This document shows positions 224 through 53,786 of a DNA stretch of 55,670 nucleotides, piece after piece (within the stretch, counting starts at the first letter, position 1; each line of letters begins with the position of its first letter). The position numbers and the translations under genes were made by a program. The DNA is from a virus (Duplodnaviria; Caudoviricetes): the IMG/VR virus record IMGVR_UViG_3300030118_005064, positions 1 to 55,670 of that record; one strand, written 5' to 3'. The notes beneath the pieces are model-generated. The model had not been told where the DNA came from, searched no databases, and saw only the letters and a list, made by a program, of their open reading frames with translations.

Positions 224-508
224 ATGAAAGAGTACGGCAGTCTTGGTCTTGACGACATCGCTCGGCTACAGAAGCGCGGCATCCGCCTTAACGAGTCCTA
301 CGGGGCTTCGGTGAGAACAAACGAGGACAATCCCCTCGCAGGCGTTACTCTCAAACAGCGCAACCGTAATAAAAGCGCAGGGGATGTCCTTAACATCGGC
401 TCCGGTACGAGGTGCAAGCATTGTGGAATGCTGTACTTCTGTTGGGTTGACAAGTGCAGGACATGTAGCAAACCGATGGACTTCAATTTGGGAGTGAAAG
501 AACAATGA
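224..508 (+). CDS. Zn-ribbon protein
   Basis: CKHC...CRTC at C-terminus; GAGGTGG SD before ATG 224; ATGA overlap with next gene. Confidence 0.7.
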   Translation: MKEYGSLGLDDIARLQKRGIRLNESYGASVRTNEDNPLAGVTLKQRNRNKSAGDVLNIGSGTRCKHCGMLYFCWVDKCRTCSKPMDFNLGVKEQ

Positions 509-720
509 CAACACCACTGGATGAGGCTTGGTTTGTTTTGAAAAAGCAGTTGCCATCATTGGAAGAATTACAGGATGACCCTTTGGCGTTTATGTCAGAG
601 GAGGAAAAGCGGGAGCGAGAACTTAGGGAAAGGATAGAAACTGTGCGTAGGATTACTGGTGAGCCAAAAGAGATACCAAACCCTTCCCGTCGTTTTCCAT
701 CAGCCGCCGGAAATGCTTGA
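505..720 (+). CDS. Small charged protein with N-terminal AWxxLK tag
   Basis: MTTPLDEAWFVLKK start; GGAGTG SD; E/R-rich helical remainder. Confidence 0.7.
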   Translation: MTTPLDEAWFVLKKQLPSLEELQDDPLAFMSEEEKRERELRERIETVRRITGEPKEIPNPSRRFPSAAGNA

Positions 721-733
721 GGGAGGAATATGA

Positions 734-2353
734 ATGCCAGTAGTGTTCAGTCCCGGTGAGCCTGAGACAAGGCCGCTTGACCCGGAGGCCATCGTCTACA
801 CAACTGGAGACAAGGTAGGGCAACTTCTCGGCATCGCCGCAGGTGAGCCTGTCCTTGGAGCGGCCGACGCCGTGTCCGACGGCTTCTTCATTTTGGGTGC
901 AGATTTCAGAGAACATGGATTTGAGAGTGGGGACACCATCCTCGTCCACAGCGACCTTGACCCGCTTGGTACTGAGTTCGTTATCACGGCTCCGACCGTC
1001 GTGGATGTCAGCGGAACAAAGTATGTGAAACTGCCAACGACCGGCGTCACTCATGCCAACTACACGACGACGGCAAACACCGAAATCCAAAACAAGACGA
1101 TTTTCACCAACGGCAAGCGAAGAGGCGTGACCAAGAACATCGTCAATGACCACATCAAGAGAATCCAAGACAGGATTGACAACTACACTCACAACGCATG
1201 GCGACCGTATTTGGTCTCGGCCGAGTACATCAACTTTGACACCTACAAGCCCTACCGACGGCGATACTTCACCGACTATGTGGGTACGACGCCTCTGTTG
1301 TTCCGTAATGTTCAGCAGATGCTGAGAATTGAAATGTGGCAAGGTGAAGACTACCGGGAGATTTGTGGTGCAGAGGCTCGCCTCAATTTCAGCGATGTGT
1401 CAAACCTCGCATCGGCAAAGGTGTTCTTGTCTCCCGGCAACGGCAGTGTCGCTGAACTCGCACAAGGCACTGCGAGCAATCAGTGGCGTGACGATTTTGA
1501 CGCTACGACCGTGGCTCAGAACATCGCCGACCTCATCAACAAAGAAGACAGGGTGAACAAGGCGGCTGTAGAGTTCAGCCCCACTTTTACCTTGGAAGGC
1601 GCATCATCCAATGTGGCAGTTCACAACGAGTTCTTGGCTTCGGCCAACGCAGACTACGGCACGGGCATTGTCAAAATAACTTCCATGCGACCCGTTAAGG
1701 CAGGCGAGGCGTGCAGTATCGTCACGACATCATCTGACATCGCTATAGACCACTCCTCTCGCAATACAGCCACCGTCACAAGCGTCGTTTCCACCACCGT
1801 CAATGTGGACTCAACGAACGACTTCGTTGACGCAGGCGTGTGCGTTAAGGGTGATACGGTCTTTCGCTACACCGGCAAAACCGCTACATCGTTCACGGGA
1901 TGCGTTGTGGTCACGGGTTCTGCCTTGAGCGACATCTCGGGAACAATCACTCAGCACAAGTTCTCTTTGTCTTTGCAGGCAGGCTCGCAAAGCACCGTCG
2001 TTGACGCCATCACTGGTGAGACCACAGTGGACAGAAGTAGCAGTGGAGACAGCGCTCGTTTGCGAGACTGGTGGCTTGACCACGAGATGGGCATCATTTA
2101 CTTCAACAACTCCTATCCGTTTTTTGAGTTCAACTCTGTCAAAGTGGCTTACATCTACGGTGAGCGATACCTTGAGAAAGCAATTGAAGAAGCCGCCACC
2201 AAACTTGTAGCGAGCGAACTGCTGATGTCCGACGACCGAAGTGTGCTTATTCCCGAAGGAAGCCAAAACATTGACCTCGGTTCCAAGGCACAACTGTTTC
2301 GCAGAGAGGCCATGGACATCCTCGCTCGCTACAAAGAAGTGGTGGTGTGTTAA
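734..2353 (+). CDS. Head-tail adaptor (neck) protein with inserted beta domains
   Basis: C-terminal VKVAYIYG...AIEEAATKLVASELL pattern typical of adaptors; position before terminator and tail tube. Confidence 0.6.
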   Translation: MPVVFSPGEPETRPLDPEAIVYTTGDKVGQLLGIAAGEPVLGAADAVSDGFFILGADFREHGFESGDTILVHSDLDPLGTEFVITAPTVVDVSGTKYVKLPTTGVTHANYTTTANTEIQNKTIFTNGKRRGVTKNIVNDHIKRIQDRIDNYTHNAWRPYLVSAEYINFDTYKPYRRRYFTDYVGTTPLLFRNVQQMLRIEMWQGEDYREICGAEARLNFSDVSNLASAKVFLSPGNGSVAELAQGTASNQWRDDFDATTVAQNIADLINKEDRVNKAAVEFSPTFTLEGASSNVAVHNEFLASANADYGTGIVKITSMRPVKAGEACSIVTTSSDIAIDHSSRNTATVTSVVSTTVNVDSTNDFVDAGVCVKGDTVFRYTGKTATSFTGCVVVTGSALSDISGTITQHKFSLSLQAGSQSTVVDAITGETTVDRSSSGDSARLRDWWLDHEMGIIYFNNSYPFFEFNSVKVAYIYGERYLEKAIEEAATKLVASELLMSDDRSVLIPEGSQNIDLGSKAQLFRREAMDILARYKEVVVC

Positions 2354-2355
2354 GA

Positions 2356-8620: not shown

Positions 8621-10657
8621 ATGGCGACTCCAATCAGACTACTGGGCGGTTTGCAAAATGAGTTGCAAATGGATTTGCTGGCACAAGCGATTGACATCAG
8701 CGTTGACAGAAACGCTTCTCACTTCCCGACGCCCAACAACATCCTGAAACGCTTTGCGATTGATACCAACACGCCGAGAGTCATGGTGGAAATAAACGGG
8801 GTCATTATCGGTGACGAAGGCACCGAGACGCACCAAGGAGGGAGCACAATCACGGACAGTTCCGTACCGCTCCGTACACTCATCAATTTTGGTAGCATGC
8901 TACCCACCGAACCGTTCAGCGCGTTCAAACCTACAGGCTTTGGCACGGTTCACTTGACGAGTTATTCGTACGCCACCAGCAACATCAACAAGGATTTCCC
9001 AACCTTTGTCACCGACCGTCAGTACACGGTTGGGGCCACGAACACCATCAGCGGTGCCACGGCTTTGGGCAACAGGCGTGTCAAAAGGTGGGCATCGTCT
9101 GCCAACCTCTCCGCTAAAATCCAAACCACCTTGAAGTTCACAGGGAGTTCCAGCATAGGTGCTACAGGGGCACTACCAGTGGAGACCATTCTTTCGGTCG
9201 GCGGTTCGGCCATGTCCATATCAAGCAATCCAAGCGAAATAGGAGCGTCTGCTCTGTTGAATGTCGGCGACCGGGTGGTAAAGGTTGACGGTACTTTCCT
9301 TGGAGAAGTGTCGGCCTTGACTGACACGGCCGTGACTTTCAAGGATGCCTTGACTTCTGCCATAGCGGCCAACGATGAAGTCTATGTTTCACCAAAATGC
9401 TTCAATGAAAGAAACGAGTTTGTAGGGTTTGTCGTGGGCATTTACGACGACTCCAGCGTCAGTCAAGGAAACGACGCACAGTGGTACATTGAGTTCAGCG
9501 GCAACATTGAGACGAATGTCAGGGACGGCGACACGCTCACCATCAATCAAAGTAACCCGTCAATTGAAGCCACTCTTCACAACGAGTGCGTCAAATTGGT
9601 TCCCTCGTATTGGCTTGAGTCGGTGTCTCGTAATCCCAAGGGCTCTCTGTGTCAAACAGATGTCACGATGGGTCAAGGTAGTGGAAACATTGGTGTTCGT
9701 TTCCGTTTCAACGCCAGCAAGACACCTTCTTTGCTTGGAGGAAGTGACGCCATATCCATCATCCATCAAGCGAAGGCGACATCTCGTGCCTTTTCGCACA
9801 CCAGTGTGTCCGTGCCACGAGGAGATGCCGCTTTCTTTGACGCCGTAGTTGAAATACCCATCAAAGGGCTGACCACCACGGCAGGCAAAAATCCCGCAGT
9901 TATCATGGCTGAATTGCTTGAAGACGCTTTGGCAGTCTCAGGAAACATCAGTTCAGTCAATGTCAGCCCGACGGGTAAGACGCTGGCGGATGCGTTCAAG
10001 GTGACGAGACATCAATCCATTGTTGTCGTAGAGCAGATTTATCGTCCCGATAGGGACATTATCCATCCCGAGGCTATGTCCATCGTCATTCGCAAAGCGT
10101 TCCAGCCTCAAGTGTTTCAGGGTGGCGGTGTCAAAAGTAGCAGTGCGAAGAAGTCGGCCGGGGACAAAGTGCAGGATTTGATAGGGCTGGTTTCCAATTC
10201 TCAAAAGGACATTGACATGTTCCGAGGTATTCAGATACCGTACGACAGTCTCATCACCAGTTCAGGCGTGACGGGCACGGCAAGGAACTTTTTCTTGACC
10301 TTCGGTGATGTTCCTGCATCTGAAAAGGGTTCGTTGAACAACACTCGCTCGGCTTCGGAGATGATGAATCAAGTGATTTTGTCAAGCGATGCTGGAGGGA
10401 ATGTAGATGAATCAGCCAAAGAGGGCTTCTTTGACCAAGTAATTGATGCGTTGGTTCCTGAAACCGTGCAATCCCTTGTTGGCTTTTTGACAGGTGCAGT
10501 GGAAGATTTGTTCGTCACTCTTACGACGCCAAGCCACGGCAACGATGGCGGAATACGAATTATGCCGGAGAAACTTCATGTGCGATATGATGCTGGGAAC
10601 AACTACTACGCATTCACGCTGTTGCTTGTTGCGACGGACTTTGTAATAGGTGTTTGA
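8621..10657 (+). CDS. Tail-tip protein 2, paralog of 6062..8611
   Basis: Shared PIRL...IEIxGV...DEG and KSxGDKxQDL, RGIQIPY, RNFFLT motifs; GAGGTG SD. Confidence 0.65.
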   Translation: MATPIRLLGGLQNELQMDLLAQAIDISVDRNASHFPTPNNILKRFAIDTNTPRVMVEINGVIIGDEGTETHQGGSTITDSSVPLRTLINFGSMLPTEPFSAFKPTGFGTVHLTSYSYATSNINKDFPTFVTDRQYTVGATNTISGATALGNRRVKRWASSANLSAKIQTTLKFTGSSSIGATGALPVETILSVGGSAMSISSNPSEIGASALLNVGDRVVKVDGTFLGEVSALTDTAVTFKDALTSAIAANDEVYVSPKCFNERNEFVGFVVGIYDDSSVSQGNDAQWYIEFSGNIETNVRDGDTLTINQSNPSIEATLHNECVKLVPSYWLESVSRNPKGSLCQTDVTMGQGSGNIGVRFRFNASKTPSLLGGSDAISIIHQAKATSRAFSHTSVSVPRGDAAFFDAVVEIPIKGLTTTAGKNPAVIMAELLEDALAVSGNISSVNVSPTGKTLADAFKVTRHQSIVVVEQIYRPDRDIIHPEAMSIVIRKAFQPQVFQGGGVKSSSAKKSAGDKVQDLIGLVSNSQKDIDMFRGIQIPYDSLITSSGVTGTARNFFLTFGDVPASEKGSLNNTRSASEMMNQVILSSDAGGNVDESAKEGFFDQVIDALVPETVQSLVGFLTGAVEDLFVTLTTPSHGNDGGIRIMPEKLHVRYDAGNNYYAFTLLLVATDFVIGV

Positions 10658-10658
10658 A

Positions 10659-13600
10659 ATGAGTCTGCTGATTGAACCGGGCTTTGGTCTCAAGTTCAAC
10701 GGTATCAGCGATAGCGTTCTCGTTCCTGTCAACAGCAAGCAGATTCACGGAATCCAAGACGAGGGCAGAAAGGCCTTGCCGGTGTCTCTCAACGCGTTCA
10801 CTCTTGAGTCGTGGTTCATTCCCGATTGTGGCGGCGTCGTTTTTGAACAAGAGAATGTCATGCGGTTGACCGTCGGTAGTCCCAGCAGTCCGGCCCCGGC
10901 AACCTTTGAGGTGCGACTGAGAAACCCAGCAAGCGGAAGAGAAGCAATCTACACGCTGTCCACTGCCAAACCAGTGACCAAGGCTAACGGAAGGATTGCC
11001 TACTGGGACGGTGTTCTGTACCCCGCAGTGAACGAGATTCACGATGCGTACTTGGCAACTGACGCTGGCAGAAACGATGTCACTGCCTTCAACTCAGGAC
11101 ATCGTGAGTTGCTGAATGTCACCGTCATGTTTGACAGGCGAGTCATCAGCCTCTTTGTGAACGGTGACTTGGCAGTCTCTCAGACTTTGGAAGAGCCGCA
11201 TGAACTGGTTACTCAACAGAATCACATCTATTTAGGTGGGAGAGGTGGCGATTTCCGAGGGACGCTTGAGTCGGTGCATCTGTCAAAAGGCGCACTCCCC
11301 TCGGGCTATCAACAGTACGCTCCCGTCAAGAGTGACAACACGCTCGGCCTTTGGCGCTTTGAAGAGCCAATTGAGCCCATCAGTCTCATCACCACCACGC
11401 CGTCCATATCAGCGTCCACTGGTGCCAGTTCCACCGTCAATGTAGGTACAACTGCGGCACAGGCGCTTGTTGACGAGTTGACAGGGCAAAGCGGTCTGAC
11501 TTCCGTGGACTTCACTGACACCACCAAAGCGTACAACTCGGGCTCCTACTCCGTCACGGTTCACTCATCCACTTCCACCAGCACGGCGACGATTCCCAAA
11601 GTACCGTACAACATTCTCATCAATCCGCTGGGCTTCAATCAAACGACAGGTAAGCCGACAAACAAGGCACCTGAACGCATGAGACTGATGTCCGTTGACG
11701 CAAGTGCGGGCACTATCGTCGTTGAGTCCATTCACCTTGACTTTGAAGCCAACGCCTCTACTGGACGCCGAGGAGCGCTGATGGCTCACGATGCAGGACG
11801 CTTCGTTATCATCACGGGCGACTGCATCGTTGATACCGGCAAAGGCAACGAGTTTCAGCCGTACGGTAGCGGCACGCAGTTTTCACAACGGCAGGGACAG
11901 GTCTGCATTGATGAAAGCGATTACGAGAACCACGGCGTGGTTTTTTCACAAAGCATGGCCGTTGATAGTCACGAGTACAACAAGTTCTCTGCCAGCACAA
12001 CGAACATGGGCTCTGACTTACTCGCAGGTCATTGTGGACGACACACGCTGAATCATGTGGTCAGCCACCCGTTTATGGGTTTGCTCCCCCCTACGAGCCA
12101 CCACAGCGTTGACAAGAAATTGGACATGGGAAGCGATGTCATCACAGCGGCGTTCCCATCTCAGTTTTCTGATATACGCTCTACGGTTCCTGCCAACAGC
12201 ATCGTTTCCAGTTATGACATCCACTCACCCATCAAGGTCCAAAGCATCACATCGTCCACCGTCGTGTCTTCGTTGGTGGAAAACGGGATGTCCGACATCG
12301 CTGACTCACAGCGAGAAGTCTTGGCTTTTGGCGGTGAGGGTTTCAACCCTGTGCCGTTTTTGTTGAAGTCAGTGCCTTCACATCAAGAAACAGGAAACAC
12401 GCGCCACGCCATACCCTCCGTCAACTCACGCATCGCTACCTTGTCTCTCCCCAACTTGGCCACTTACGACTACGCCCCGTTCGTGCAAGTTCACTACAAC
12501 GCCCTTGACTACGAAGGCACCGAGTTCTCAGTCGGGGCTACAAGTCGCCTCACTGGTAACATCAGCGGTAGTAACAAAGTGCTTACACTTCAAAGCATCA
12601 AGTCGTTCGGCCACGACGGACAAACGATACTGGGCATGAACATACGCATCGGCGGCACTGCGGCAACGACGGACAGTCAAGTTTTCGCAACCATCAACTA
12701 CAGCGCCAAGACGCTCACATTTTCAGCCGCCGTTGCGTCAGGGTTTGCAACGGCCGCAACGACTGGAGCGATTGTGCAGAAATTGGACTTGACTCCTAAA
12801 CTCTTGGTTGAGAAGACACTGCCCAGTGTCAGTACAATCCTCACAGGCTCCTACTCCATTCTTGATTTGATTCACGATTCCATGGCAATCGGCCCGCTGA
12901 CCCTGTTTTCTCCCGGCGGTGTCATTGATTTTGAAACGCCCAGCATGCTTGCTTTGACCGATGGCCAGTTGGAAGGTGACAACTCTGAAGGCGTCGTTGC
13001 CGAAAAGGTGCTGAACCAAGACCTCTGTCCTGAAAATTATCTGCCGTTGACTTCAACTGACCCGCCCGCTACAACTCCACAAGCCATAGCGCTCGCTACT
13101 GCCGAATTGTCCAGCCGCAATTCGGTGTTCCATAGAGTCCTCGTGAGAAGCAACAAAAGTGAAATTGCTGATGTGGAGGAAGTGGCTGACGCTACGACGC
13201 AGTTGGCTTCCAACGGTAGTAGGCCACGAACCGGGGTGTTCATCAACAACGGGTCAGGTTACTCTTCCAGCACCAGCAGTGCGATGACTGTTGACGGAGC
13301 AGACGCCACCGCTTTCTTTGAGGTTGGTGACCGACTCTACAAAGCCGACGGCACAGACCTTGGAGCAATCACTGCGGTTTCAAGCACAAGCGTCACGGTT
13401 GGTGGCGGCACCACTGCCGCCGTTGTTGACGATGATGAGTTGTTCAGTCAACCGCAGATGTTTGGCTTGGGTACAACGAACCAAAGCACCTGTGTCAACG
13501 AATACTTTGACATCATTGAGCACACCTCGGTAGGGGGTCGCACGAGTCTTGTGGTACAGCCGAGCGACCGAGAGCGGCTGAACATGCTCAGCAAAATGTC

Positions 13601-16600
13601 CGACAGTTCGGATAGAGCCAACTTCATTTCCATTGAAAACCTGATTGCGAGAGGCAGAGTGGTTTCGTTTGCAGACGGTGAAGACGGCGAGTCTGTTTTG
13701 ACCGCTTACGGTACATCGGGCGACCTTGCTTCGTCCAGCGTTTATGTCAAAGGGTCCGCCGCACCTGACAGTCACATTGTCAAGGAAATCATGCCCGGTG
13801 CACCTGTCGTTACGATGATGCTCGGCGGGGTAGGGCAAGGGGCCATTAACACCAAGGAGACTTACGACCCAAGTCCACTTGCACGCCTTGCTTGGAACAC
13901 TCGGCACGATTGTCAAACGAGAGTGACCAGCACGACGAGCACGACAGCAGTCGTTGCTCCATTGAACAACAGAACGACTGACTTGCAGTCTTGGGGGACA
14001 TACTGCTTCCCCAAAGTCGGCACCGTCTACCTTGAAGTTGCCAGCAACGAAGGCGAGAGCATCAAGTTTGCAACGGCTCAGTACACCAGCAAAACAGGTG
14101 ACACATTCACCTTTGCTTCGGGTACTGGACATCAAGGCACTGGTAAGTTTGTACTTGCAGACGGAACAGAGTCCGATTCGTTTTCAGCGTGGGTCACGGC
14201 GACTGGCATGACGGCTGGAAGTGTTTTGCATGTTGACGATAAGTTCGGCGAAGAAAGCATGTGCAACGACGGAACCACCATCAACGACCGCTTGTTCCAA
14301 ACACTGGACACTGTACAACACGATTACCAACTGGGGACACAGTACGCAAGTACGAGAGCGCTTGTTGAGATTCCGTTGTTTGAGGAGTTCTTCTTTGACA
14401 GGCCCGACCAAGGTATATTTCCCGGTCCTGACAACACGATGAAAATCCACATTGACGCTACACACACGGCTCACTCTTGGGCACCGAGCCCGGTTGGTAG
14501 AAGAGTGCCATCTGTGTCACCGAGAGACCCGGAGATTTTCGGGCCGTTCTCTTACGCAATCCAAGCAGATACTCACCGTAGCGGTACCAAAGTCACGCAA
14601 CCTTACGATTCTTCTACGCACCGCATTTATGTTGAGGATGCAAGTTTGTTCCCAATACCTTCTGCACCACCTGTTTCCGTCGCAGGGCTTGGGGGTAGCG
14701 CAAGGTACCGACGCGCGTTCTTGGCAAGCGGAGAGTGGGTCATTTATTCAGCAAGAGACACCAGTAACAATTTCCTGACAGTTGTAGGTTCGGCCAGTGA
14801 TGATTTCATCGCAAGTGAGAACTTCTTCCGAGACTTGAAAGTAGGAGCGTTCATCCTCCCTGCTCCCGGCTATCAGGACATGAATTACACCGGGATTGCT
14901 GACAACCCCAGTCTCATCAGCGCAGGCTATGAGAATCGTCGCCCGTTTTACTTTGACCGCTCCAATGTGATGACGCAAGGTGGAAACACCGACTACGGAC
15001 TCAAGCAGTATGTGAGTGCAATTGAACTGCGAGCAGGTCCAAAAAGCAACCCTCACTTGCCGAAAATCAAATCCAAACGGCCACGAGCCAAGGTCATCGC
15101 AGTATCGGGTAGTCCTGCAACATCCATCACGCTGGACGACGCCAGCCTCTTCCCAAAAGACAGCCCTGACAGCGATTACAAGTTCAGGGTGGCGTGGCGA
15201 AATGCAAGTGGCACGGTGTTCAGAGGTTTTTACACCGGGAGAACAAGCAACACGCTCACCATATCCAGTTCAGATTCAGGCTTCACTCCGTCCGTAGGCG
15301 ATGAAGTCTACATTGAAGACTTGCACGCCACTGCTTCGGGTACCTTTCCAAAAGTCAAAGAGACATTCCTCAGCAGAGCATGGTCTCATCCTTTCTGTGT
15401 CGGCGGGTTGCGACAAGGTGACACGGTATGGATGAACATGCACTACACCAATCCTCATGCAATTGAAGGAATGTTCTGCAAGAGTCGGGGCACGCTCAAC
15501 GAAGCGGAGGTATGGAAAGGTTTCAACGGCGGCGTCGGCAGTCTCCATGCCAACCCAAGAGACAGCATCCCGATGGAAAACTTCCTGATTGGCGACAGTT
15601 GTGTTGAAACAGCACAGAATCTCGTTCAGCACATCAACAAGACGGTAGAGGTCAATTACGACGCACTCGGCTTAGACGAAACGCCGCCTGTTGTTGCTTT
15701 CATTGACCCTTATCAGTGCACAGAAGACTTTGCACGAGTGTTGTTGTACGATGTAGAGCATGACCGTGAGTTCATCGCTTTCCAAGACATTCACATGCAA
15801 GTCCAGTCCAGTCCTGCCGCCGCTACCATCGGTACGCAATCGGGCCTCAAAACAGGTGCCATTGTGAACAGCAACGATGCCAGCGGTTCTTTGTTAGATG
15901 TTGCCGCTGGCTTTCCCAGTCAAAACAAAAACCTCAACACCACTGCTAAATCAGACTTCATTGAGTCGGCTTACGCTCACGGTTCAAATGTCAACGAAAG
16001 CGTATCAGGAGGCTTAAGCACACACAGCGTCGGCGGTATTGAGAACACAGCAGACGACGGCTACTCCACAAGGACCAATCATGCCGTGGCGGATGTAGCG
16101 GATGCTCTTGCCAAACATCAGGAGATTGAAGCGTCTGTGCGAGAGCGGTCAACCTTTTTTGATACGCCCGACGGCACGCGTGTTATCCCTGCTTTCTTGG
16201 CGATGAAGGGCATACGCAACAGCACGCTGACGCTTGACGACACAAGATTGAATCAACTTGACCACTGGACAAAAATGGATTTCGTTCGCCGGTTGAGTGT
16301 TGATTTGGGTGAAGTAGCACTCCGAGATGGCGTTACAAACATTGAGTCTGCGGCAAGAGAAGTTGTGCGACTCATCAACCAAGCAGGTGCAAAAAATGGC
16401 AAGACGCATGCTCGTAGACCAAACGACCAGTTCCTTGGCGAAAACGACAAGTTTGACCCGGCTTCGGTCCATCAAAAGGCAGACTTTGCGGCAACGGCTT
16501 CTACGCACGACCCTGCTCCATTTTGGGATGTCAAGAAGGCGTTTGCAAATCACGACCGAGGGACACACATGGGCTATGTCCGGGCGCACTTGGGCCGTGT

Positions 16601-19600
16601 AGTCCTTGACTCTGATGGTAACCAAGGCTTTTCCGTCGTTATCCACTCAACCATCCCCGGTGCAAGCGGTCGCAATTTCTGCGCTTGGCTTGACGCCAGT
16701 CGGGCACAAACGCCGTACCGACCGCAATACCTCATCGGTCACGGCGGTCGGTTCCGCAACTACTGGTGCCAACCTGATGAAATCAGTGGAGAGAACATGC
16801 ACCCGGCACCGATGCCCATCAATCGTTTCGGTAGACCGTTTGCACCAATCACGACACTCAAGGAGTATCTACCACCCGAAAATGTTGACGATGAGACGAT
16901 GAACAATCTCAACTTCGGTGCTGACACAGTGGACAGCGGAACGAACTTGCAGTTCTCCAACACAGAGGTTGTTTCAGGAAGAACCAGCAATACGCTTCTG
17001 AATGAGTCGTTTGAAACTCAAAGCCCTGCATCGGCACTCGTTGATGGTCTGAGAGTGGGTACGAAGGCCAAATCAAGAATCAATTTTGGCGGAATGACCA
17101 TGGCTGGCATACCCGGCTGGTCGCCTGACTTGAGTAAGTGGGGCTACACTAACGACGGTACGGTCAACGCCACAAGGTACGGCAACGCGTCCAATGCCTC
17201 TGACGCCATGACCGTGACAACAGAAGGAAGCGACGACGGCTACATCCCCAAGACGGACATGTTGGCAGAAAACATCGGTAGTCGTCCACTTTACGGTCTG
17301 CGCTTTGAAGACCATCGTGGGGACAATCACACCATCCGTTTGTTGTACAAACAGTTCGGCAAGTCCTTTTCAGGCGAAAACACCTACCTGCCTCCGACAC
17401 TGGACGAAGAGGTCATCGTTCACTTTGACGACCGAGATGTAGGACAAGGTGGATTTACCATCGGTCGGCACATTGTCGGCACAGGTGAAGTTTGCGGCGA
17501 AAAGACTGGAGGCAGTGCCAAGAAGTTCAAAGGAAACCTTTGGAACACCTACCCGTCTCCAATCGTGGGAGTCAAAGTCGCTACATCGCTGTCCAGTGGT
17601 ACCATGACGGTGACGCTGGACGCACCGTATGACACCAGTGCACCTGCCGTGATGCAATCTCACCCCGACATCCTTGGCTACCTTGGTTTCCCAAAGAGCG
17701 GAATGTTCCAACTGTCAAAGCACGGCACGGGCGGTAGTGACCACCAAGGGTTGACATTTTACTACACGAGCAGAACACACAACAATTACAGCGGCAGTCA
17801 CAAGTTTTTCGGTGTACTCGGCGGTTCTGCCAGCCACAGCAACGGCGACTGGTACATGAGTCCAAGAATCAACTTCACGAGTCTCTTGACGGATGAAGTG
17901 ATTGCGGCGGCAGTGGCTCACGCTATCAACATGGAAAGCACCACACAAGACAACATTGAGGCAACTTCGTTTGACTGCACTGACATGTTCGCACCCGATG
18001 GACGCACCTTGGGTGAGTGGGGTGTGAGTCCGACAGCCATCCGAATCAAGGTGCGGTCGGATTCCAAGGTGCCACTCAACCGCCTGTTTGAAGCCAATGT
18101 AGCAAAGGACTTCGGATTGCTGGATGGTGTTTCCACAGAAACAGTGGACAGTGGGACGCATTTGCAAGGCTTAACGGACGCTGACAAGGATGCCGGAGTG
18201 AGGCTGGACATCGGGTACATACCGAAGACCGTCTTGCACATCAGCACAAAGTACAGAGGGACCAATGCAAACACCGCTACCCCAGTGTTGGTTGACAGTC
18301 AAAACAGTGTCGTTGACATCATTGACTGGCAGAGAAATCTGAGAGGAGAAAACTTCACTGACATCGCAGGTGACCACATCATCCCACGGGTGGACTCTCC
18401 TTGTGTAGAGGTGCATTCTTTTTCGGACCCTGACATCAGCGTAGCCACGAATGAATCGTGGGCTCTGCTTGGCAAACCAGCGTCTGACACAGCCAACAGT
18501 TGGGGTGAACCCTTCATCGTTTGGCACAGTAGCAACGCTTGGGCAAGAGTGCGAAGTAAGGCAGGCGTCAGTGACCCCGAAGAAGTGGTGACCATTGAAA
18601 GTAAAAGCACCAACCCAGTGGCATTCCCCAACCCTGCCGCAAACGACATTCTTTGGAAGCGAAGTTCAACCTATCGTGATTTTTCACAGATAGACGGTGT
18701 GAGGATAGCGGGTAGCAAAAACTCCAGTCCGTTTCTGCACTTCCGAGGTGGACGGGACAGCCCTGACCACTATGTTCCTCTCTACTTTGGTGGTGGTTTT
18801 AGCGGCGTCGTGACGGACATCAATGACGGTACGCAGAACGACTATGCTGATTTCTACACACATCCATACTCCAATGGACCCACCGGTTCGGCTGGTTTCC
18901 AAAATGTAGGAGAAATCGCTGGTTCGTTTGCACTCATTGACACCAACGCCATGATGGCCATGTTCCCCGGCACGGTCTACCTTGACCAGCACAAAGGACA
19001 GAATCATCCCCCTTTCTTCAATCAGGATGCCATACTACCCTTTGACATGACCAAGGGAGCAAACAGCAAAGCGACTGGATTGGACTACACGGACGGTACG
19101 AACTCTGTCCACGCTAACATCCCGAGCCCTGTCATTCTGCGCTTCGCTCATCCGCATGCCCGCTACAAGCACGATAGCAGTGCGAGTGACGCCACAACTT
19201 ACATGATTTTTGGACCGGGACAGGCTTTCCCGCATAACACAGCAACAACTGAACCACAGGGTGCAAACATTGTCACCGCTGGCAACGGCTACAGTGCAGT
19301 GCCAATTCACATCGGTGGCGATGCAAGTAAGGATTCGTTCTTGCCGAACCAATTGGCTAACGGAGACAGCGGAGAACACAGCGGTTTCAACAGAGGAAAC
19401 GCTTTGGCTCACTTGCCCATGACCACTTTCTTTCAGAAGAACAATGTTTCCGGTTTCAATTACACGATGAACTGGCAACCGACAAAGGGCTTTCCGAATG
19501 TGAATGCTTCCGGCTCTCGCACATACTCGCAAACTAACATCATGGGGTTCTTTTACGAAGGGTCAGACCAATCAGTCACAGGACTTCCCAAGCACTATCA

Positions 19601-22600
19601 CCCGTTCAATCACATCTTTGATGACATCAGCAGTAACGCTGTTGGCGGTTCAAGCCATCCGACTACGAGAAAGTCATCTGTCATTTGGCACATGGATGGA
19701 GGGTATCACCCCGGCGGTCATTTCCTTGACGACCATGTACGGAAGAATCCCAAAAATCATGCGGCAAGTGCATTTTTGTCAACGGGTAGCGGTGCTAAAC
19801 ACAACACAAGTGCCTTCCGACCTGCTGGACTTCTTGCCAAGGCTTACCTCAGTTACTATGGGGGTTCGCCTGACAATCAAGTGTTGGACGACAATGTTGT
19901 CGTGGTGGATGCCACACGCTGTCAAAACGCAGAAGAACTTGGTGCAGTGCTCAGCGGTGCCATTAACACCTTCCCCGGCAAAGACCCGTTGAAGGCGATT
20001 GGCGGCACTTTCATGCCCAGTATGCAGAACGCTCACAAGCAAGACCGCTACGGTTGGGTAGAATTGGCAGTGAACGAGTACAATGCCGAAAACGGCGGGA
20101 CACCTGCTTCTTTGCGAGTCACCAGCACGACGACAACACTTCCCGATTACGGTTGGCTAAGAGTCAGTAACGGCACCACTGCGGGCTTTGCGCCTTACAT
20201 TTCTCACAGCGTTTCAGCACCAAACATAACATTTACGCTTGCGAAGAACACCATCACTTCCAACACCAATGTGGTAGACCCCCAAGCACGCAGTGCAATT
20301 ACACCTGACTCAAACTACAAAGCGTATGTTTGGGCCAAGGCAGGCACTCATCGCTTCAACAACGCCGCCTCCGGCGCTTCAAGAGACCACATAACGCAGG
20401 TTCACTTCGGCGGGTTCCAAGACGCCGTTGACAGGACCAAGCCGGTCGGCGCTGTAGGATGGCACGGTGAGGCCTATTCGTACCTCAATTCGTATGAGGC
20501 TTCCAACAAAATAGGTGCCAATTTGCACCCTGCTGGCTTGGGGGCATGGCATCCGTTCTTGGGCTTCAATCCTTACGGGGCCGCAGAAACTTGCGTCAGT
20601 GGAGGAAGCCCGGTCAGCAAACTTGCGGAAGGCGGTGCAGTCGTGTCGTTTTACGAGGATTACTGCGTGAGTGGACTTGCCAGTCGTCATCTCGTAGCCA
20701 TCACTCACGAAAGCGAGTTGCCGTTGATTGCGAAAGCCGACAAAGACGGCGTGAGTGGAATGGGCGATTGGTTGCATGTTGGCCAAACAGGCAACATTGA
20801 GCATGCTGGTACGGTGGCATGGGACGCAAGCAAGGTGCACAACAAAGACCGTTATGTCGGCACCGCTACGGCCGGACCGCATGTAGAAGCGCAGGTTCAC
20901 TCGGGTTTCTCGTTGCCCACGGCGAGCAGTGATTACCCTGCCGTTGGTAGCGCACCTTCTGACTCACAACTGCACAGAACCATCCAAAGCGGTGACATGG
21001 TGCGAGCAAATGCTTGCAACTATCCAACTGGGGATTTGTTTTGGGACGAATCTGTTGTGAAAAACTCGGCTTTCCACGAGGACAGAGGGACATACGGTGT
21101 TGAGTGTATAGGAGTCAGCGACCGGAACGACTACCTGAACACTGCCGCAACGCCCTACAAAGGTCTGTACAACTACTACAACGAGCGTAGTGCGGCTCGC
21201 AATTTCTTGCCGGAGCATGTCGTGTGGAAGCGCATGGACGGCGGCAGTGTGACCATGCCCGCTGTCAACGCTCGTGGGCTCGGAATGATACCGTGGACGA
21301 AGCGAAAGGACGGTAGTGAGTACAAAACCGTCGGCGAAAAAATCCTTGGCAACAACCGATTTTCTTTTGAGACGACCAACGCCGCCATGTTCCCCATCAT
21401 CCAAGCACAGGAGTTGTCGCATCCACAGTTGGCGGAACAACATCCGCTTGAAATCAGAAACGCCCTGTTGATTCCCAACGAGCACATCCAGTTCCAAAGT
21501 GTCAGTGTCGTTGACGATACCGGGCAAGAACACCGGTTGGAGGGTGGTAGCCCACTTGGAACGGTCATCATGGACTTCCGGCACATCAGTGACCGTGAAA
21601 TTGAAGGCCTTGCTCCTGCCCTTGCTGGTGCAGGTGTAAGTCCAAATCTCAAAATTCGCTTGCCCAATCCTGACGAGATTCCCGGCAACATCGTGGTCAG
21701 GTCAGGATTTGACCGCTTACAGGGCTATCAAAACGAAACCATCGGTAGCGGTGGCCTGCAACACCCTGCACAGGCGAGTGCTCAACTCCAGTCAATGTTC
21801 GGCAACTCACAGCCGGGACCAAGGCTGTTTCCAACATGGGAGAACAACGGTTGGGAACATCTCAGTCAGGATGCAGAAGACATCTCCTCCGACACGAGTC
21901 ACAGTCGCTTGAAGTTCCCTGCTTCTACTTCCGAAGGTTGGAGTGACCACACTGATAACGCCCCTCTTGATTCTGCTTACGAGCCACACGACCGAAGTCT
22001 GTTCTTCCATGTCACTCGCATGGGCGTGTCCATGACGCATCGTTACGATGTTGACGAACTGACCTACTCCAGTTTCAGCGGTACAGAAATCACCGTCGGG
22101 TCTACACCCGAAGCGGCTACATGGACGGATTCAAACGAGCAAAGTAGCGGTCGGTATTTCCTGCGCGTTTATGACCCAACGACCGACAAAGGCGTCATCG
22201 CTTCGTACACGGGAGTGGGGACAAACAAGTTCACAGGCGTCGTCTACAGTCCCGACTTCTCGTCATTCGTGGCCGGGAAGACTGGACTCAAGGTTGTCCC
22301 ATCGTACTACATGCCTGCTGGCTCAACAAGGCTGTTTGCGGCAAGGCGATTACGAGACCACGCAGAGTACAGCGGTGCCAGTCCTGACATGAAGTCCATT
22401 GATTGGTTCACGCTTTACAGCAATCTACCTGCAAACACTGGTGCCATGGCGGCAACATCCACAGCCTACACCAACTTGACCAAACCGAAAATGACACCAA
22501 TGCCCATACCAAGAATGGGGCATCATCATGTCAATGCCACCATGGCACTGATGCCCGGACACTACGCTCACCCTGCTTACCAGCGACTGTACGACCTCAA

Positions 22601-27256: not shown

Positions 27257-27661
27257 ATGACACCGATGGAGAAGGCTTGGGTCATCTTGAAAGAGATGCG
27301 TCAAACGGAATTAGGTGAACATCATGAAGAGTTTCCCAGTTCTTACGGTGAAGTGACTCATTACCACGGTACAGGAGAAGCGTATGCTCCGTCTATTCAA
27401 AGACAAGGACTTCAACCGGGTCTTGGACATCATGGGTATGGAGTGTATATGACGCCTGACCTTGCGGAAGCCGAGTATTACGCAAGAAAGCACCGATACG
27501 GCGGCATACGCTACAATTCCCAAAATTACCAACAAAGCGAACCCGTCGTTTTTGCGGTTAGGGGTAACCAACTACCAATTGAAACCATGACACCCGAAAT
27601 ATCGTTCCTTGATTCTGCTCCGGTGCCCCCACAGCGACTTGTGAGGATTCAAGGGAAGTGA
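27257..27661 (+). CDS. ADP-ribosyltransferase-fold protein with N-terminal AWxxLK tag
   Basis: YHGT...SIQRQGL...GYGVYMT...AEYYA matches the H-Y-type ART (PARP/Tpt1-like) NAD-binding core; starts MTPMEKAWVILK. Confidence 0.7.
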   Translation: MTPMEKAWVILKEMRQTELGEHHEEFPSSYGEVTHYHGTGEAYAPSIQRQGLQPGLGHHGYGVYMTPDLAEAEYYARKHRYGGIRYNSQNYQQSEPVVFAVRGNQLPIETMTPEISFLDSAPVPPQRLVRIQGK

Positions 27662-32616: not shown

Positions 32617-32630
32617 GTCTCTCTCTCTCC

Positions 32631-33239
32631 TCACCAGTCCACTTCGTACTCTTTCACATCGCCACTGTGTCGGCATCGTGCCTTGACGAAGCCCTCATTC
32701 ATGCCGTGTTCCCACAGTTCGTAGACCAGTTGAGCGTCCTTGAGGCAGTATTCTGCCACTTTGTCGTAGTTGCCTTTGCGCCATTCAATAGGCGCATCGT
32801 GGCTGTTCATCAGTTTCCCTTTGTTGAGGGTGTGATAACAAGCGTCGGACAGCGGCACAGCGTGCCCGACAATGGATTTCAGCAAAGCAGATGTGTCAAA
32901 CACCTGCTCTTCTGACTTGGCCATGATGTCACCGGCTGTCCAACAGTCCAGTGCATCACGGATGATTGGGAGGTCAAACTGTTTCAAGTTGTGACCGAGG
33001 ACCATGCCGCCCTCAGAGACATGCTTGGCCAAGTCTTCCCCGATTATTTTTGGGTGAAGGGGCTTGACATCCGTACCTTCGGGTAGATACTTGGACACCT
33101 TTTCATCAGCGTAGACCGTGCCTTTTTCGCCATCCCAAGTGGCGACAACCGTTGGCTCAAAGAGATGACTGGAACCCCATCCTCCAATCTCATGAGAGAA
33201 GTTTGCAGTTTCAATATCAAGGGCCAACATTTTCTTCAT
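32631..33239 (-). CDS. DEDD / RNase H-like 3'-5' exonuclease
   Basis: LDIET, GHNLKQFDLP, EYCLKD motifs. Confidence 0.8.
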   Translation of the reverse strand: MKKMLALDIETANFSHEIGGWGSSHLFEPTVVATWDGEKGTVYADEKVSKYLPEGTDVKPLHPKIIGEDLAKHVSEGGMVLGHNLKQFDLPIIRDALDCWTAGDIMAKSEEQVFDTSALLKSIVGHAVPLSDACYHTLNKGKLMNSHDAPIEWRKGNYDKVAEYCLKDAQLVYELWEHGMNEGFVKARCRHSGDVKEYEVDW

Positions 33240-45117: not shown

Positions 45118-46578
45118 TCAGGCACTCATTTCTATGAGGTCAGTCAACTGAGATACATCACTGTACCCCAGCCCATCGTCAAGGTAGCGGATGTCCGCTT
45201 TTCCTAAAGTCAGGTCGCTCAGTGAAAATTCACTGAGTTCAACGACAACAACCATGGCGTACTCATCAACAGGAATCCAATCCTGACCGGCAAGTACGCC
45301 TTGGTGGGCAAGTCGCTGACGCATGTGCTGAGCAACTTCCACACTTAATTGCAACTGTCCAATTTCATAGGTTTCATACCCGTCCATGGCGGACAGGCGA
45401 ACATGAGTTTCAAACGCTTCATCACGACGCACCGCAGTGACGAGCAGGCGAATGTGAAAGGCGTCTTTGAGAATGACCCAGCCGCCTACATTTCCGAGGC
45501 GGACAGGGCCGGTGGACAACAGTCGCAACCGTTCATCGTCCTCCAGCGTCTCAAGCAAATAGTTGAAATCGGTGTTGGTGGGTACAAACTTACCTACCTT
45601 GACCGGAGCCTTGAGACTGAGGTTTCCCAGCAAAGCGGCTCTGTCTTTGTAGTCCTGCTTGTAGATGTCCCAGTCGTTGCCGACTGCGTACACATCGGTC
45701 ATGTTCGTGACAACACTGCCGTCCATCTCCACCTCAAAGACAGCCTCTGTCTCTGCGTAGGGGAGCATGGACTCTGACATTTTGCCGAACACTTGCTTGT
45801 GCCGGTTGTAGAGAACGCCCTTGAATGTCCCTTTCGGGAACTCGGTGATGTGTAGATAGCGCCGGTCGCCTGATACAACCTCAGCGTACACATCCTCCGG
45901 CGTGGTCATTTTGTCCCACGCCTTGTAGATGGGGCCGAGGAAAGGCTGGCCCGGTTGCATGGTCCGCACTTCCATGTCCTGCGTGTCACCGTACAGACGC
46001 TGAATGATTTCAGCAGGCGACATGGTTTGGAGCATGACATTGATGGATTGCAGGCTCTGTGCGCCACGGTCGGTAGCGTACGAAACAGCCTGCAAAAAAC
46101 GGTTGACTGGCATGGGAGGGCGTTCATCTGTCGCCCTGCCCCAAAACAACAGTGCCTCTTTCTCATTCATTTTGCTGGCAATTTGAAAGAAGCCTTCGTC
46201 CTTGATTCTCGCCATGAGGTTGAGCGCTTGCTTAACGGTCAGCCCTTGACCGCCGTACTCTGCTGACTCCAGTGCCAGCATGGGGACGACGGGCTTGCCT
46301 GCCATTGATTCGTCCCACACCAGTGGAGAGATGGACAACTTCTTGCAGATGTCCTCCCGTAGTTCGTGGAACGAAATGAACTGCCGCTGGTACTTGGAAT
46401 ACTCGGGGTAGTACATGTCAATCAGTTGGGAACTATCGTCAATTGAGTTATTCACACCTTGGCGAATCAAGTCAACGATTCGCCTGAAATACTTGGAACG
46501 CTCTTCGGCGTCCGTCATGTAGAAGCGGTAGAAGTTTCGCAAGCCTTCTGCGATGTTTGCCGCCTCAGCCAGTAACAT
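45118..46578 (-). CDS. Degenerate ATP-dependent DNA ligase-like protein
   Basis: Ligase-like motif order (PGQPF..P, YAEVVSGDRRYLH, VFEVE, YKDRAALL, GWVILK, OB-fold tail) but no KxDG lysine. Confidence 0.55.
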   Translation of the reverse strand: MLLAEAANIAEGLRNFYRFYMTDAEERSKYFRRIVDLIRQGVNNSIDDSSQLIDMYYPEYSKYQRQFISFHELREDICKKLSISPLVWDESMAGKPVVPMLALESAEYGGQGLTVKQALNLMARIKDEGFFQIASKMNEKEALLFWGRATDERPPMPVNRFLQAVSYATDRGAQSLQSINVMLQTMSPAEIIQRLYGDTQDMEVRTMQPGQPFLGPIYKAWDKMTTPEDVYAEVVSGDRRYLHITEFPKGTFKGVLYNRHKQVFGKMSESMLPYAETEAVFEVEMDGSVVTNMTDVYAVGNDWDIYKQDYKDRAALLGNLSLKAPVKVGKFVPTNTDFNYLLETLEDDERLRLLSTGPVRLGNVGGWVILKDAFHIRLLVTAVRRDEAFETHVRLSAMDGYETYEIGQLQLSVEVAQHMRQRLAHQGVLAGQDWIPVDEYAMVVVVELSEFSLSDLTLGKADIRYLDDGLGYSDVSQLTDLIEMSA

Positions 46579-46840
46579 CTGTTTCCCTCAGTTTTTGGAG
46601 GGTATGCTGGATTGCTTTCGCCAGTGAATCGGCGTCCTCAAGACTCAGCCTCAAACCCTCTCTCGTGAAGCCTTCGCCTTTGGGATGTTCAACGGTGCGT
46701 CGGATGCGAATGTCAATTTTGGGCTCGGCATCGCCTTTGGGGTCAGCCACGCTCATGACTGCTTCGGCCTTGCCACGCCACCGTATCGTAGTGGCTGGCA
46801 CACGCCAGCGAATCTCTTGGTCAAAGCCACGGTTACTCAC
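46565..46840 (-). CDS. PC4-like ssDNA-binding protein
   Basis: KIDIR...FTREGLRLS followed by helix; likely GTG start at 46840. Confidence 0.55.
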   Translation of the reverse strand: MSNRGFDQEIRWRVPATTIRWRGKAEAVMSVADPKGDAEPKIDIRIRRTVEHPKGEGFTREGLRLSLEDADSLAKAIQHTLQKLRETDVTG

Positions 46841-47009
46841 CGGAATCACACCCCTCACACTCGCACAATTCAAGGGCTTCGTAGCACAAAAAGCACCAAC
46901 CTTCTTTCCAAGCAAGGAAGTGTGGGCAAGTCTTGTATGCGTCGTCATCCCTTCTTCCTTCGTCGCAGTGACCACAGGTATGCCCTTCGTATTTGTCTGT
47001 GTCAAACAT
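46833..47009 (-). CDS. Cys-rich microprotein
   Basis: MFDTDKYEGHTCGHC...CPH...CFLC...CECEGC. Confidence 0.5.
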   Translation of the reverse strand: MFDTDKYEGHTCGHCDEGRRDDDAYKTCPHFLAWKEGWCFLCYEALELCECEGCDSGE

Positions 47010-47193
47010 TCTTCTTTCCCTCCCACCATGCGGGTGGTTCTTTCTCGCCCACCCAGTCAAGGAGTCCGTCGTAGATAGCACGACGCAGGCGTAGGATGGA
47101 GCCGTAGTCCTCCCACACATCGCCGCTGTCTCGTCGCACGAGGAGCATGATGTGGCACTCGTCCTTCATCTCAGCGTCAAGCACTTCGGTCAC
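47002..47193 (-). CDS. Hypothetical protein
   Basis: ORF tiling with overlaps. Confidence 0.5.
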   Translation of the reverse strand: MTEVLDAEMKDECHIMLLVRRDSGDVWEDYGSILRLRRAIYDGLLDWVGEKEPPAWWEGKKNV

Positions 47194-49160: not shown

Positions 49161-49192
49161 TCAATCACTCTCTCTCTCTCCATTTACCGTAC

Positions 49193-51207: not shown

Positions 51208-51308
51208 CACTCATCACCTCGCAAGGCTTCCTTTCGTTGGGCTTCTCGTGCTTTGAACTTCGCTCGGTATCGGCTCAGTCCTGCGCTTCGTTGGTTCTTC
51301 GTTGGCAT
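51207..51308 (-). CDS. 33-aa basic microprotein (below track cutoff)
   Basis: MPTKNQRSAGLSRYRAKFKAREAQRKEALRGDE; GAGGTGA SD; fills the gap. Confidence 0.5.
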   Translation of the reverse strand: MPTKNQRSAGLSRYRAKFKAREAQRKEALRGDE

Positions 51309-51319
51309 GTCTTCTCACC

Positions 51320-52843: not shown

Positions 52844-52880
52844 TTGTTTTCTATTTGTTTTTGTGGTTTCAGAGAACCAG

Positions 52881-52912
52881 CCATTTCCTTTATTGTCAGT
52901 TTAAAAGGACTT
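52881..52912 (-). promoter_or_regulatory. Duplicated 32-bp promoter-like element, copy 2
   Basis: Identical to 45082-45113; 37 nt upstream of the DUF932 gene start. Confidence 0.75.
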
Positions 52913-52961
52913 GACTCCAGTCCTCGGAAAATGATATACCACGCTACTGCGTGCGGTGAAT

Positions 52962-53786
52962 ATGAGCAGGGCGCTTGAGATGGCTTGGATGCTGTTGAAG
53001 GCGTCCATGCCGCCGTTCGTCCCTCGTCGCTTGGATGACCAGTTGGGCATCGGAAGTTATCGTGCCGCTTACGAACCGCCGGAGGACTCCGACATTGGCT
53101 ATACAACCAAGTACGGCACGGGTGAAAAGTTGGCTGATACCATGGTGCTGGGTCAACTTGCAGAGATGTTCCCCGAAGCCTTCGTGGGAGAACAACTGCA
53201 TGCTTTACCAGTTCCCGAATCACAATTACCACTCTTCACCATGCAGGCTCGTAGGGACAAAGACGACCCACTGTCGTACAGCGAGCCTTACATGGCCGAC
53301 GAGTTCTTTGACTACGGTGCGGATGGTGGGCACAATGTTATGCCGGTGACCTACACCCAAGAATTGGGTGCACCCATTGAGTCCGATGTCAACTGGCGAG
53401 AGTTGGCCCCGCACATTGAAGTGCGTGACCGGTTGAGAGAACTGTACCCGCTTGCAGGTGCGCTTGGCGTCGGCGACACCAAGCCCGAAAACTTCGCACT
53501 GATGCCGGATGGCCTTGACATTCCTCAACTCAGCACCGCCGGTACCGTGAAAGTGATTGACCCCATGTTTGACTACCCCCGAAGGAGACCGTTCTACACG
53601 CCGGAGTTCAGACGGGAGGCCAGTCGCTTTCAGCAAGACCTCCCTGAATTGAGAGAGTTTGCTCAGCCCCTGTACGCTGGCCTTGACCAGTACAACGACC
53701 CCGCACTTGCTGAGCAAATGCTTGACGCCATTGTCCAAGGCGAGCAACAGAACCTGCAAAACATCCTCACTCCTCTGAATCCTTAA
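52962..53786 (+). CDS. Protein-kinase-like fold protein with N-terminal AWxxLK tag
   Basis: LGIGSYRAAY Gly loop, TTK lysine, GDTKPENF catalytic loop, KVIDP; starts MSRALEMAWMLLK; lone + strand gene in the - strand arm. Confidence 0.7.
   Translation: MSRALEMAWMLLKASMPPFVPRRLDDQLGIGSYRAAYEPPEDSDIGYTTKYGTGEKLADTMVLGQLAEMFPEAFVGEQLHALPVPESQLPLFTMQARRDKDDPLSYSEPYMADEFFDYGADGGHNVMPVTYTQELGAPIESDVNWRELAPHIEVRDRLRELYPLAGALGVGDTKPENFALMPDGLDIPQLSTAGTVKVIDPMFDYPRRRPFYTPEFRREASRFQQDLPELREFAQPLYAGLDQYNDPALAEQMLDAIVQGEQQNLQNILTPLNP

Follow-up and report, generated by a model that had tools for sequence, protein, structure and literature searches.

A short peptide tag on unrelated proteins of magrovirus-like archaeal viruses, a candidate address code for virion cargo

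Phage T4 marks its internal proteins IPI–III and Alt, an ADP-ribosyltransferase, with a capsid-targeting sequence that is strictly N-terminal and is taken off by the prohead protease gp21; the T4 internal proteins are basic, and the T4 prohead protease cuts after Glu. In encapsulins, a short terminal peptide, usually C-terminal and Gly/Ser-rich, suffices to address unrelated cargo into an HK97-fold shell, and in Staphylococcus phage 80alpha the scaffold and capsid proteins share an N-terminal motif that is cut by an HK97-type prohead protease. Magroviruses are tailed viruses of marine group II archaea and are among the most abundant viruses of surface-ocean archaea; to our knowledge, none is in culture. 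Here we describe a tag of 12–13 residues that begins three otherwise unrelated proteins encoded in a 55,670-base stretch of viral DNA (IMG/VR record IMGVR_UViG_3300030118_005064; the whole stretch is called the window below), which, judged by its genes, is a fragment of a magrovirus-like archaeal tailed virus. A T4-type set of highly diverse, fast-changing proteins whose sole common part is a short terminal peptide is described in one account (PMC3012670). In the giant phages phiKZ and SPN3US, many head-internal proteins, their packaging shown by mass spectrometry, are processed by the head protease at a common short motif, some of them at several sites; those motifs are cutting sites inside long propeptides, whereas the magrovirus tag is a predicted 12-residue helix at the extreme terminus.

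The three tagged ORFs (open reading frames), all on the + strand, begin MTTPLDEAWFVLKK (505-720), MTPMEKAWVILKE (27257-27661) and MSRALEMAWMLLKA (52962-53786), and their tags comprise MTTPLDEAWFVLK (amino acids 1-13, 505..543), MTPMEKAWVILK (amino acids 1-12, 27257..27292) and MSRALEMAWMLLK (amino acids 1-13, 52962..53000). The regular expression AW.[VILMF][VILMF]K has exactly three matches in all six frames of the window, and these are the three ORFs, with the Ala of the motif 6-7 residues past the ATG in each. A position-specific scoring matrix (PSSM) for the tag, which was trained partly on the same data that it was scored on, gives three matches at 15 or above in the window, including one of 29.7 for the second tag, and none in the reversed window sequence. 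The payloads that follow the tags are mutually unrelated, falling into three separate clusters with a best pairwise blastp E value of 0.071, and a DNA alignment of the three tags has GCTTGG and TTGAA alone in common. The tag is predicted to be helical, with DSSP helix spanning residues 3-14 in the third gene and 3-13 in the second, both in low-confidence models. An initial annotation of the window had proposed that one N-terminal motif is shared by these three genes and that the proteins are unrelated thereafter. Both statements hold (three of three matches; blastp E of at least 0.071 in every comparison), and it is confirmed that the sharing lies far beyond chance.

The same tag recurs throughout related viruses. 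We scanned 46 records related through TerL (at least 73% TerL identity), some of which are near-duplicates so that the tag counts are not independent. The DNA pattern for the tag has 134 matches in these records, of which 129 lie on the terminase (TerL) strand; a control with the pattern reversed has 5. In G001, a related IMG/VR record of 100,986 bases (98% complete by CheckV), a search with the DNA pattern for A-W-x-h-L-K (h, hydrophobic) gives eight matches on the structural strand, and neither the other strand nor the reversed-pattern control has a match. A stricter regular expression finds 38 matches in 5 records (456 kb), confined to one strand in each record, and none in the reversed sequence. 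The PSSM at 15 bits or more finds 61 matches in 8 records (745 kb), 59 of them on the majority strand, and again none in the reversed sequence; an ATG stands 5-9 codons upstream of 48 of the 61. When 21 bases are specified for M-x-P-F-[D/E]-x-A-W-x-h-L-K, 90 stretches are retrieved from the whole set of IMG/VR contigs, with up to five matches within 1.2 kb. A term search of the main texts of three magrovirus papers (PMC5434244, PMC11706807 and PMC10160649) gave no mention of the tag.

A sample of 20 tag-rich regions and seven further whole records was used to define the tag. In 333 kb, 146 loose matches were reduced to 120 that fit the flanking consensus M-x-[P/A]-[F/L/I/M]-[D/E]-x-A-W-x-[L/I/V]-L-K, which is 12-13 residues long. 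Trp and the final Lys are present in all 120 tags, Ala in 116 and the Leu before Lys in 104. The other specified positions are more variable (P 61 or A 45; F 63, L 18, I 18 or M 16; D 48 or E 45; and, two residues after Trp, L 45, I 30 or V 26), and Lys is followed by a small or polar residue (A 37, G 16, Q 13, S 11). The tag is classed at an ORF start in 102 of the 120 cases, with Met 6 residues before Ala in 45 and 7 before it in 20. Another 16 are classed as internal, although some of these also have a Met 6-7 residues upstream.

Codon usage bears on the level at which the tag is conserved. Among 113 distinct 30-nucleotide tag cores, the near-invariant Leu is encoded by all six Leu codons (CTC 34, TTG 27, CTT 11, CTG 9, TTA 9, CTA 8), which indicates that selection is on the peptide and not on the DNA. 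Lys is encoded by AAA in 67 cores and AAG in 46, and Ala chiefly by GCT (66), GCA (24) and GCG (19); in none of the 113 cores does GCC precede TGG, because CCWGG is absent genome-wide. This codon diversity places conservation elsewhere than at the nucleotide level, and on this ground a DNA-level repeat or recombination signal was rejected. A tag-like start, MAIPIDTAWVRIK, lies on the + strand of G001 (L017 1808-2401) opposite a conserved gene for a 196-aa membrane protein, and two relatives have it as well. Conservation of the membrane-protein gene on the other strand probably accounts for this start, which was left out of the tag alignment.

The proteins that carry the tag are diverse. Counting only payloads of 30 residues or longer, there are 117 tagged ORFs, and they form 55 blastp clusters (E < 1e-3). 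The median payload is 137 aa long. Pfam searches of 81 payloads assign a family to 8 and none to 73; the families are NUDIX, HD_4, GNAT, a DnaJ CXXCXGXG zinc finger (two payloads), DUF6321, a glycine zipper and a weak LIM. Just 1 of 120 payloads has a membrane-span-like stretch, and by this measure the payloads look soluble. Tagged genes vary between the window and G001, where most other genes are 77-100% identical, and clusters of 7-10 tagged genes differ in content among relatives. The proposal that the tag is modular and interchangeable is strongly supported by these comparisons of gene content, given 55 unrelated payload clusters and tagged genes that come and go between close relatives.

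Other copies of the tag are located away from N-termini. In several diverged records, tags occur at C-termini and are followed by 2-4 residues. A 446-aa protein with a zinc-protease-like HEVGH motif (G001 95668-97008, corresponding to L017 5668-7008; - strand) carries the tag at both its N- and C-terminus, ending ..TGEPMNMAWRLLKKP, and the C-terminal copy recurs in diverged relatives. A role for this HExxH protein as a universal tag protease was considered and rejected, as the homologous segment in G028 lacks HExxH. A polyprotein-like ORF of 839 aa on the + strand of G028 (L101 4968-7484) has five tags, at residues 53, 247, 447, 586 and 775. These tags separate segments that share no similarity, the last of which is a tail rich in Lys (..YPSAYANGWAVQYCKGKF..); a tagged protein of G001 has a tail of this kind, which matches phrog_27331. 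Internal tags follow a (T/R)(G/S)EP, and in many of them M or F replaces W. A payload that starts MPVVDT is N-terminally tagged in L106 (1671) and is fused behind a tag in L101 (5727). Finally, a conserved 486-aa protein encoded upstream of TerL (G001, L016 5970-7430; - strand) has an internal tag variant with a one-residue insertion, ATGEPMEDAWSSLLK, for which the counterparts in G023 and G028 read AWSTLMK and AWSSLMK; the G001 protein has no family match and no usable Atlas match. Together, the internal and C-terminal copies and the polyprotein-like chains indicate that the tag is a self-contained unit that marks module boundaries.

Each of the three tagged genes in the window has relatives elsewhere. 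The first (505-720, + strand) encodes a small charged protein of 71 aa, P0001, which has no family match. Its slot is occupied in G001 by two other small tagged genes, one of which is a diverged homologue (66962, - strand) with the same C-terminal end, RFPSAAGNA.

The second (27257-27661, + strand) encodes a 134-aa candidate PARP-like ADP-ribosyltransferase, P0002, and sits between the 5533-aa giant ORF and a gene for a 550-aa tail-like protein. It has no counterpart in G001, where the giant gene abuts the next tail gene. Three homologues of P0002 retain the tag, and H37-G38-T39, Y64 and E109 are invariant across the four sequences of the family. The Pfam PARP match is sub-threshold (13.9 bits against a cut-off of 26.7), is found for three of the four members with a best E value of 0.0023, and for P0002 itself has an E value of 0.039. 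Feature matches in the Atlas are to PARP, Tox-ART-HYD1, ExoA and Arr clusters at 0.89-0.91. A structure model of P0002 is unusable, with a predicted local distance difference test (pLDDT) score of 31. The ADP-ribosyltransferase fold that had been assigned to this protein, and with it the PARP-like assignment, is put forward as a lead only.

The third tagged gene (52962-53786, + strand) encodes P0003, a 274-aa protein-kinase-like protein, and is the lone conserved + strand gene among the replication genes of the - strand. Its place and strand are kept in G001 and in G002, and it has 22 homologues that are 45-97% identical. In the resulting 23-row alignment, which reaches down to 45% identity, tag residues A8, W9, L11, L12, K13 and A14 are at least 90% conserved. 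Further into the protein, the alignment has no exception at G29, G31 and K50, and conservation is 90% or higher at D172, K174, N177 and D200; these residues correspond to the kinase-type G-x-G, Lys, D-x-K-x-x-N and Asp. A model of P0003 has a pLDDT of 66.5 and a predicted template-modelling score (pTM) of 0.70, with residues 1-45 at low confidence. The top rows of a Foldseek search with this model are all kinases (AceK, ERK5, WaaP and RIO), although weak ones (E of at least 6.4e-3). VIA-align against a library of 48,161 chains gives HipA (Z 6.6), CotH (6.0), CtkA (5.8), HipT (5.4) and MavQ (5.3), all weak; the top ten span Z 6.6-5.0 with a root-mean-square deviation of 4.3-5.6 over 129-198 residues, and nearly all of 50 rows are kinase-like, all with Z below 8. 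P0003 has no Pfam match. We therefore call P0003 protein-kinase-like with moderate confidence, on the strength of the conserved residues and the fold matches, and the earlier assignment of a kinase fold is moderately borne out.

The spacer between the P0003 gene and the DUF932 gene is bidirectional and holds a conserved TATA-like element, GTCCTT[A/T]TAAACTGACAATAAAG (52885-52915). The same element stands upstream of positions 8792 and 14560 in G001, that is, also before one other replication-arm gene, and it may be a shared promoter. A comparison of this promoter element was tried as a guide to expression timing and was set aside, as the element carries no timing information.

Most of the genomic setting of the tags is supplied by G001. 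The window is collinear with bases 11.5-67.8 kb of that record, with 77-100% identity for most proteins, and the head module lies in the part of G001 beyond the window. It comprises a major capsid protein (MCP) that matches the HK97-fold capsid families SU10_MCP and phrog_24667, an S78 prohead protease of 492 aa with a scaffold-like C-terminal half (the protease-scaffold), a 1910-aa protein, a likely portal and TerL. The protease of this lineage matches Peptidase_S78 (42.1 bits, cut-off 21) and S78_2, both of HK97 type, and the MCPs of haloarchaeal viruses HVTV-1, HCTV-1 and HCTV-5 are about 32% identical to that of G001 by tblastn. The - strand arm of the window has Pfam matches to a family B DNA polymerase, an RFC-like AAA protein, a primase-large-subunit-like protein, ERCC4 and PD-(D/E)XK nucleases and a helicase C-terminal domain. 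Two magrovirus traits are therefore present, a halovirus-like head module (through the syntenic G001) and a near-complete archaeal-type replication module. The capsid protein of G001 and the replication genes agree with the published description of magroviruses, which combine a halovirus-like structural module with a replication module (PMC5434244).

The + strand arm of the window has weak tail or virion family matches alone (phrog_9689, Phage_tube_2 and Phage-tail_3). The suggestion that two of the tagged genes lie in a morphogenesis operon is carried by these weak matches and by synteny with G001. It had also been stated that the third tagged gene is the only + strand gene in the - strand arm. 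This is not certain: five further + strand ORFs (67-173 aa, counted from a greedy ORF list) lie there, of which 46557-47078 has a tblastn match in one of three relatives. G001 has a cluster of eight tagged genes at 92-100.7 kb, which lies upstream of TerL, the portal, the S78 protease and the MCP and shares their orientation. This cluster is located at the promoter-proximal start of the structural-strand arm and adjoins the divergent replication arm, and two of the tag copies in the window stand between structural genes.

In what we take to be the best explanation of these observations, the tag is a portable address helix, similar in action to the T4 capsid-targeting sequence and perhaps clipped after LK by the S78 protease, a reading for which we judge the chances to be about even. 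In this scheme, the procapsid under assembly would hold one common partner to which the helix docks soluble proteins that are otherwise unrelated, and the tagged proteins would be enclosed in the head, from which they could enter the archaeal host with the DNA. The LK end would be a possible cutting site of the HK97-type (S78) prohead protease. The cargo encoded in the window would be a small charged protein, a PARP-like enzyme and a kinase-like enzyme, and that of the relatives would include NUDIX, HD, GNAT and HExxH proteins and many without a known family. The identity of the partner, encapsidation, cleavage and delivery to the host are inferred; loading into the virion and clipping are plausible, at about even odds. 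The fuller proposition, in which a position-independent 12-residue code loads a shuffled enzyme arsenal into the capsid, some polyproteins are cut by the head protease and the cargo is injected into marine group II archaea, is possible but falls somewhat short of an even chance.

The likeness to T4 has several parts. Both systems place one short terminal peptide on unrelated, fast-changing proteins, enzymes among them, and both viruses encode a prohead protease. The tagged genes of magroviruses are co-oriented with the head genes, and the end of the tag is compatible with sites in the viruses' own head proteins. There are also differences: the magrovirus protease is a Pfam S78 enzyme of HK97 type rather than of gp21 type, the putative cut would follow Lys rather than Glu, the host is an archaeon and encapsidation is predicted from genes. 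Given the S78 protease, the magrovirus tag is not a descended member of the T4 system but may work like it. Encapsulins offer a parallel in shell architecture, as the MCP of G001 matches HK97-fold families. The motif of 80alpha is on two core head proteins only, whereas magroviruses carry the tag on dozens of accessory proteins, and the magrovirus MCP and protease have only the final three to five residues of it. A further point of comparison is offered by the tails through which scaffolds or proteases bind HK97-fold shells; the tag bears no significant likeness to the scaffold tail of this lineage. Mimicry of the scaffold tail was considered and rejected for this lineage as unsupported: the C-terminal tail of the protease-scaffold (..NMSWDDVHRLAGSVF) shares only [A/S]-W-x-x-h-basic with the tag, and its PSSM score is within the shuffle null.

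A link between the tag and the head protease is suggested by sites in head proteins. In the MCPs of four genomes, about 34 leading residues end in an invariant GSELLK, which is followed by AD(A/S)P. A search of 1.84 billion representatives with the MCP of G001 returned 503 matches at E of 1e-3 or lower, 123 of which were aligned at full length with the MCP of G001. In this alignment of 124 sequences, the K34 column holds K in 96 and R in 14, and the position two residues earlier is L, I, V or F in 96. The four columns ahead of that position are gappy, and the columns after K34 read (A/S/T/K)-D-(A/D)-P; K34 thus stands where a gappy segment borders on the conserved core. Alignments by tblastn to the MCPs of cultured haloviruses begin at residues 32-34 of the G001 protein, and in the MCP of HVTV-1 a 100-residue extension precedes ..SGGMSK|ADNLLD... 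In the protease-scaffold, TISLLK|SD (or SIIK|AG or GLLK|AG) stands just before the S78 domain and an invariant TFRILK|ED at the end of that domain, and a 133-aa protein of the head module has ELLK, QLLK, SLLK or EMLK near its N-terminus. Literature searches, PMC6471424 and PMC11445458 included, gave no usable cutting rule for S78 proteases. Searches of solved structures by sequence returned no match at E of 0.01 or lower for either the MCP or the protease-scaffold. A prediction of the complex of MCP, protease-scaffold and a 40-residue tag alignment scored 0.00 against a mark of 0.32, and being run without controls it carries no weight either way.

Several results weigh against this view of the tag. 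What the head proteins repeat is the half-motif x-h-L-K-small alone, at the MCP boundary and at two domain borders of the protease-scaffold, and the MCP has a second half-motif at residue 146. The top scores of the full-tag PSSM on the MCP and on the protease-scaffold, including its C-terminal tail, are within the shuffle null. An N-proximal hLK is not enriched in the head module of G001 (3 of 19 proteins, against 5 of 39 in the replication arm), whereas 8 of 11 tag-cluster proteins have one. Because of this lack of enrichment, the link to a cutting site is drawn from position and conservation, and the cleavage-site argument is weak; cutting after LK by the S78 protease may be regarded as a hypothesis compatible with the data. 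A site that served a protease and nothing else would not usually have an invariant A-W 5-6 residues ahead of the supposed cut. The payloads are mostly acidic, with a median net charge of -0.023 per residue and 24% net positive, which differs from the internal proteins of T4, and so does the presence of tags at C-termini and between domains. The retained C-terminal tags argue that the tag works while attached and is not merely a removable leader. The tagged cluster is at the start of the arm, a position equally fitting for genes of early host takeover. In the cultured relative HVTV-1 the tag is absent (one pattern match against three control matches), and the virus studied here is uncultured. 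A profile scan had been suggested as a check on the virion-address idea; tags are found on many diverse genes of the terminase strand, but they are not confined to N-termini and have no significant match in the MCP or the protease-scaffold.

An alternative is that the tag is a docking helix for a common hub other than the capsid interior. This hub might be located in the tail or baseplate, or it might be one of the giant proteins (1910 aa or 5533 aa), the virus-encoded group II chaperonin or a host protein at which early takeover factors are aimed. Occurrence at N-termini, C-termini and internal positions is like that of short linear docking motifs, the invariant A-W and the predicted helix suggest a binding surface, and the tagged cluster is at the start of a strand arm. 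The window itself encodes a possible partner in the form of a thermosome-type group II chaperonin (31114-32676, - strand; Cpn60_TCP1, E 1e-130) at the junction of both strand arms, and NUDIX, HD, GNAT and kinase enzymes could act in the cytoplasm unpackaged. However, the strong bias to the terminase strand (129 of 134) and the copies between structural genes fit late, virion-linked expression better, and the candidate hubs have no recognisable complementary feature. We consider docking at such a hub unlikely, though well short of negligible.

The conserved (T/R)(G/S)EP before internal tags, in chains with 2-5 of them between unrelated segments, gives some room to the idea that the tag is mainly a processing signal at polyprotein or leader boundaries, acted on by a viral or host protease and with no virion addressing. 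The payload that is N-terminally tagged in L106 and fused behind a tag in L101 would agree with this, as would the small or polar residue after Lys. Yet most tags (102 of 120) are at ORF starts, where a cut would remove just 12-13 residues, as would be reasonable in a targeting leader though not if processing were the sole purpose; C-terminal tags with 2-4 trailing residues are conserved; and the tagged HExxH protein is not universal, given the G028 segment described above. We regard a pure processing signal as improbable. Lower still in our estimation, and very improbable, is a degron or stability signal by which accessory proteins would be kept for a set time, or its variant, a DNA or mRNA element for cassette recombination or translation initiation. 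The fast gene turnover at tagged slots is expected if shared ends promote cassette exchange, and the extreme N-terminal place and fixed spacing from Met (among the 102, 45 have 6 residues and 20 have 7) are suggestive, but the conserved residues use diverse codons, the DNA of the three tags in the window shares only the two short stretches noted above, and internal and C-terminal copies are a misfit for an N-degron or initiation element.

Two further features of the window were recorded. The giant ORF of the tail region (10650-27251, + strand; 5533 aa) is 87% identical to its counterpart in G001, and neither half of it has a Pfam domain at E of 1e-4 or lower. Several short sites are missing from the DNA: CCWGG occurs 0 times in the window against 113.7 ± 10.8 in shuffles, and ACGT, AGCT, GATC, CTAG, GCAGC, CTGCAG, CCCGGG and GCCGGC each occur 0 times against Markov expectations of 15-486 (both strands together). 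The sets of fully avoided sites vary among the related viruses that were compared (the window, G001, G023, G028, G017 and G024). The absence of short palindromes looks like restriction-site avoidance.

If the fuller proposition of a position-independent code with injected cargo is true, the tag would define the first virion-delivered effector system described for an archaeal virus, with a cargo code distinct from that of T4. As a head-loading code, one short peptide would identify the proteins that these viruses bring into their hosts and would give a function-level handle on dozens of proteins that have no known family; it would also mean that archaeal tailed viruses whose protease is of HK97 type came to use an address tag with interchangeable cargo, a strategy known from phage T4. 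Being short, the tag is portable and seemingly tolerant of any position in a protein, and it could possibly be useful for loading cargo into HK97-fold shells. Even if one of the rival explanations holds, more than 50 unrelated protein families carry the 12-residue motif, which is then an unexplained interaction code under strong selection.

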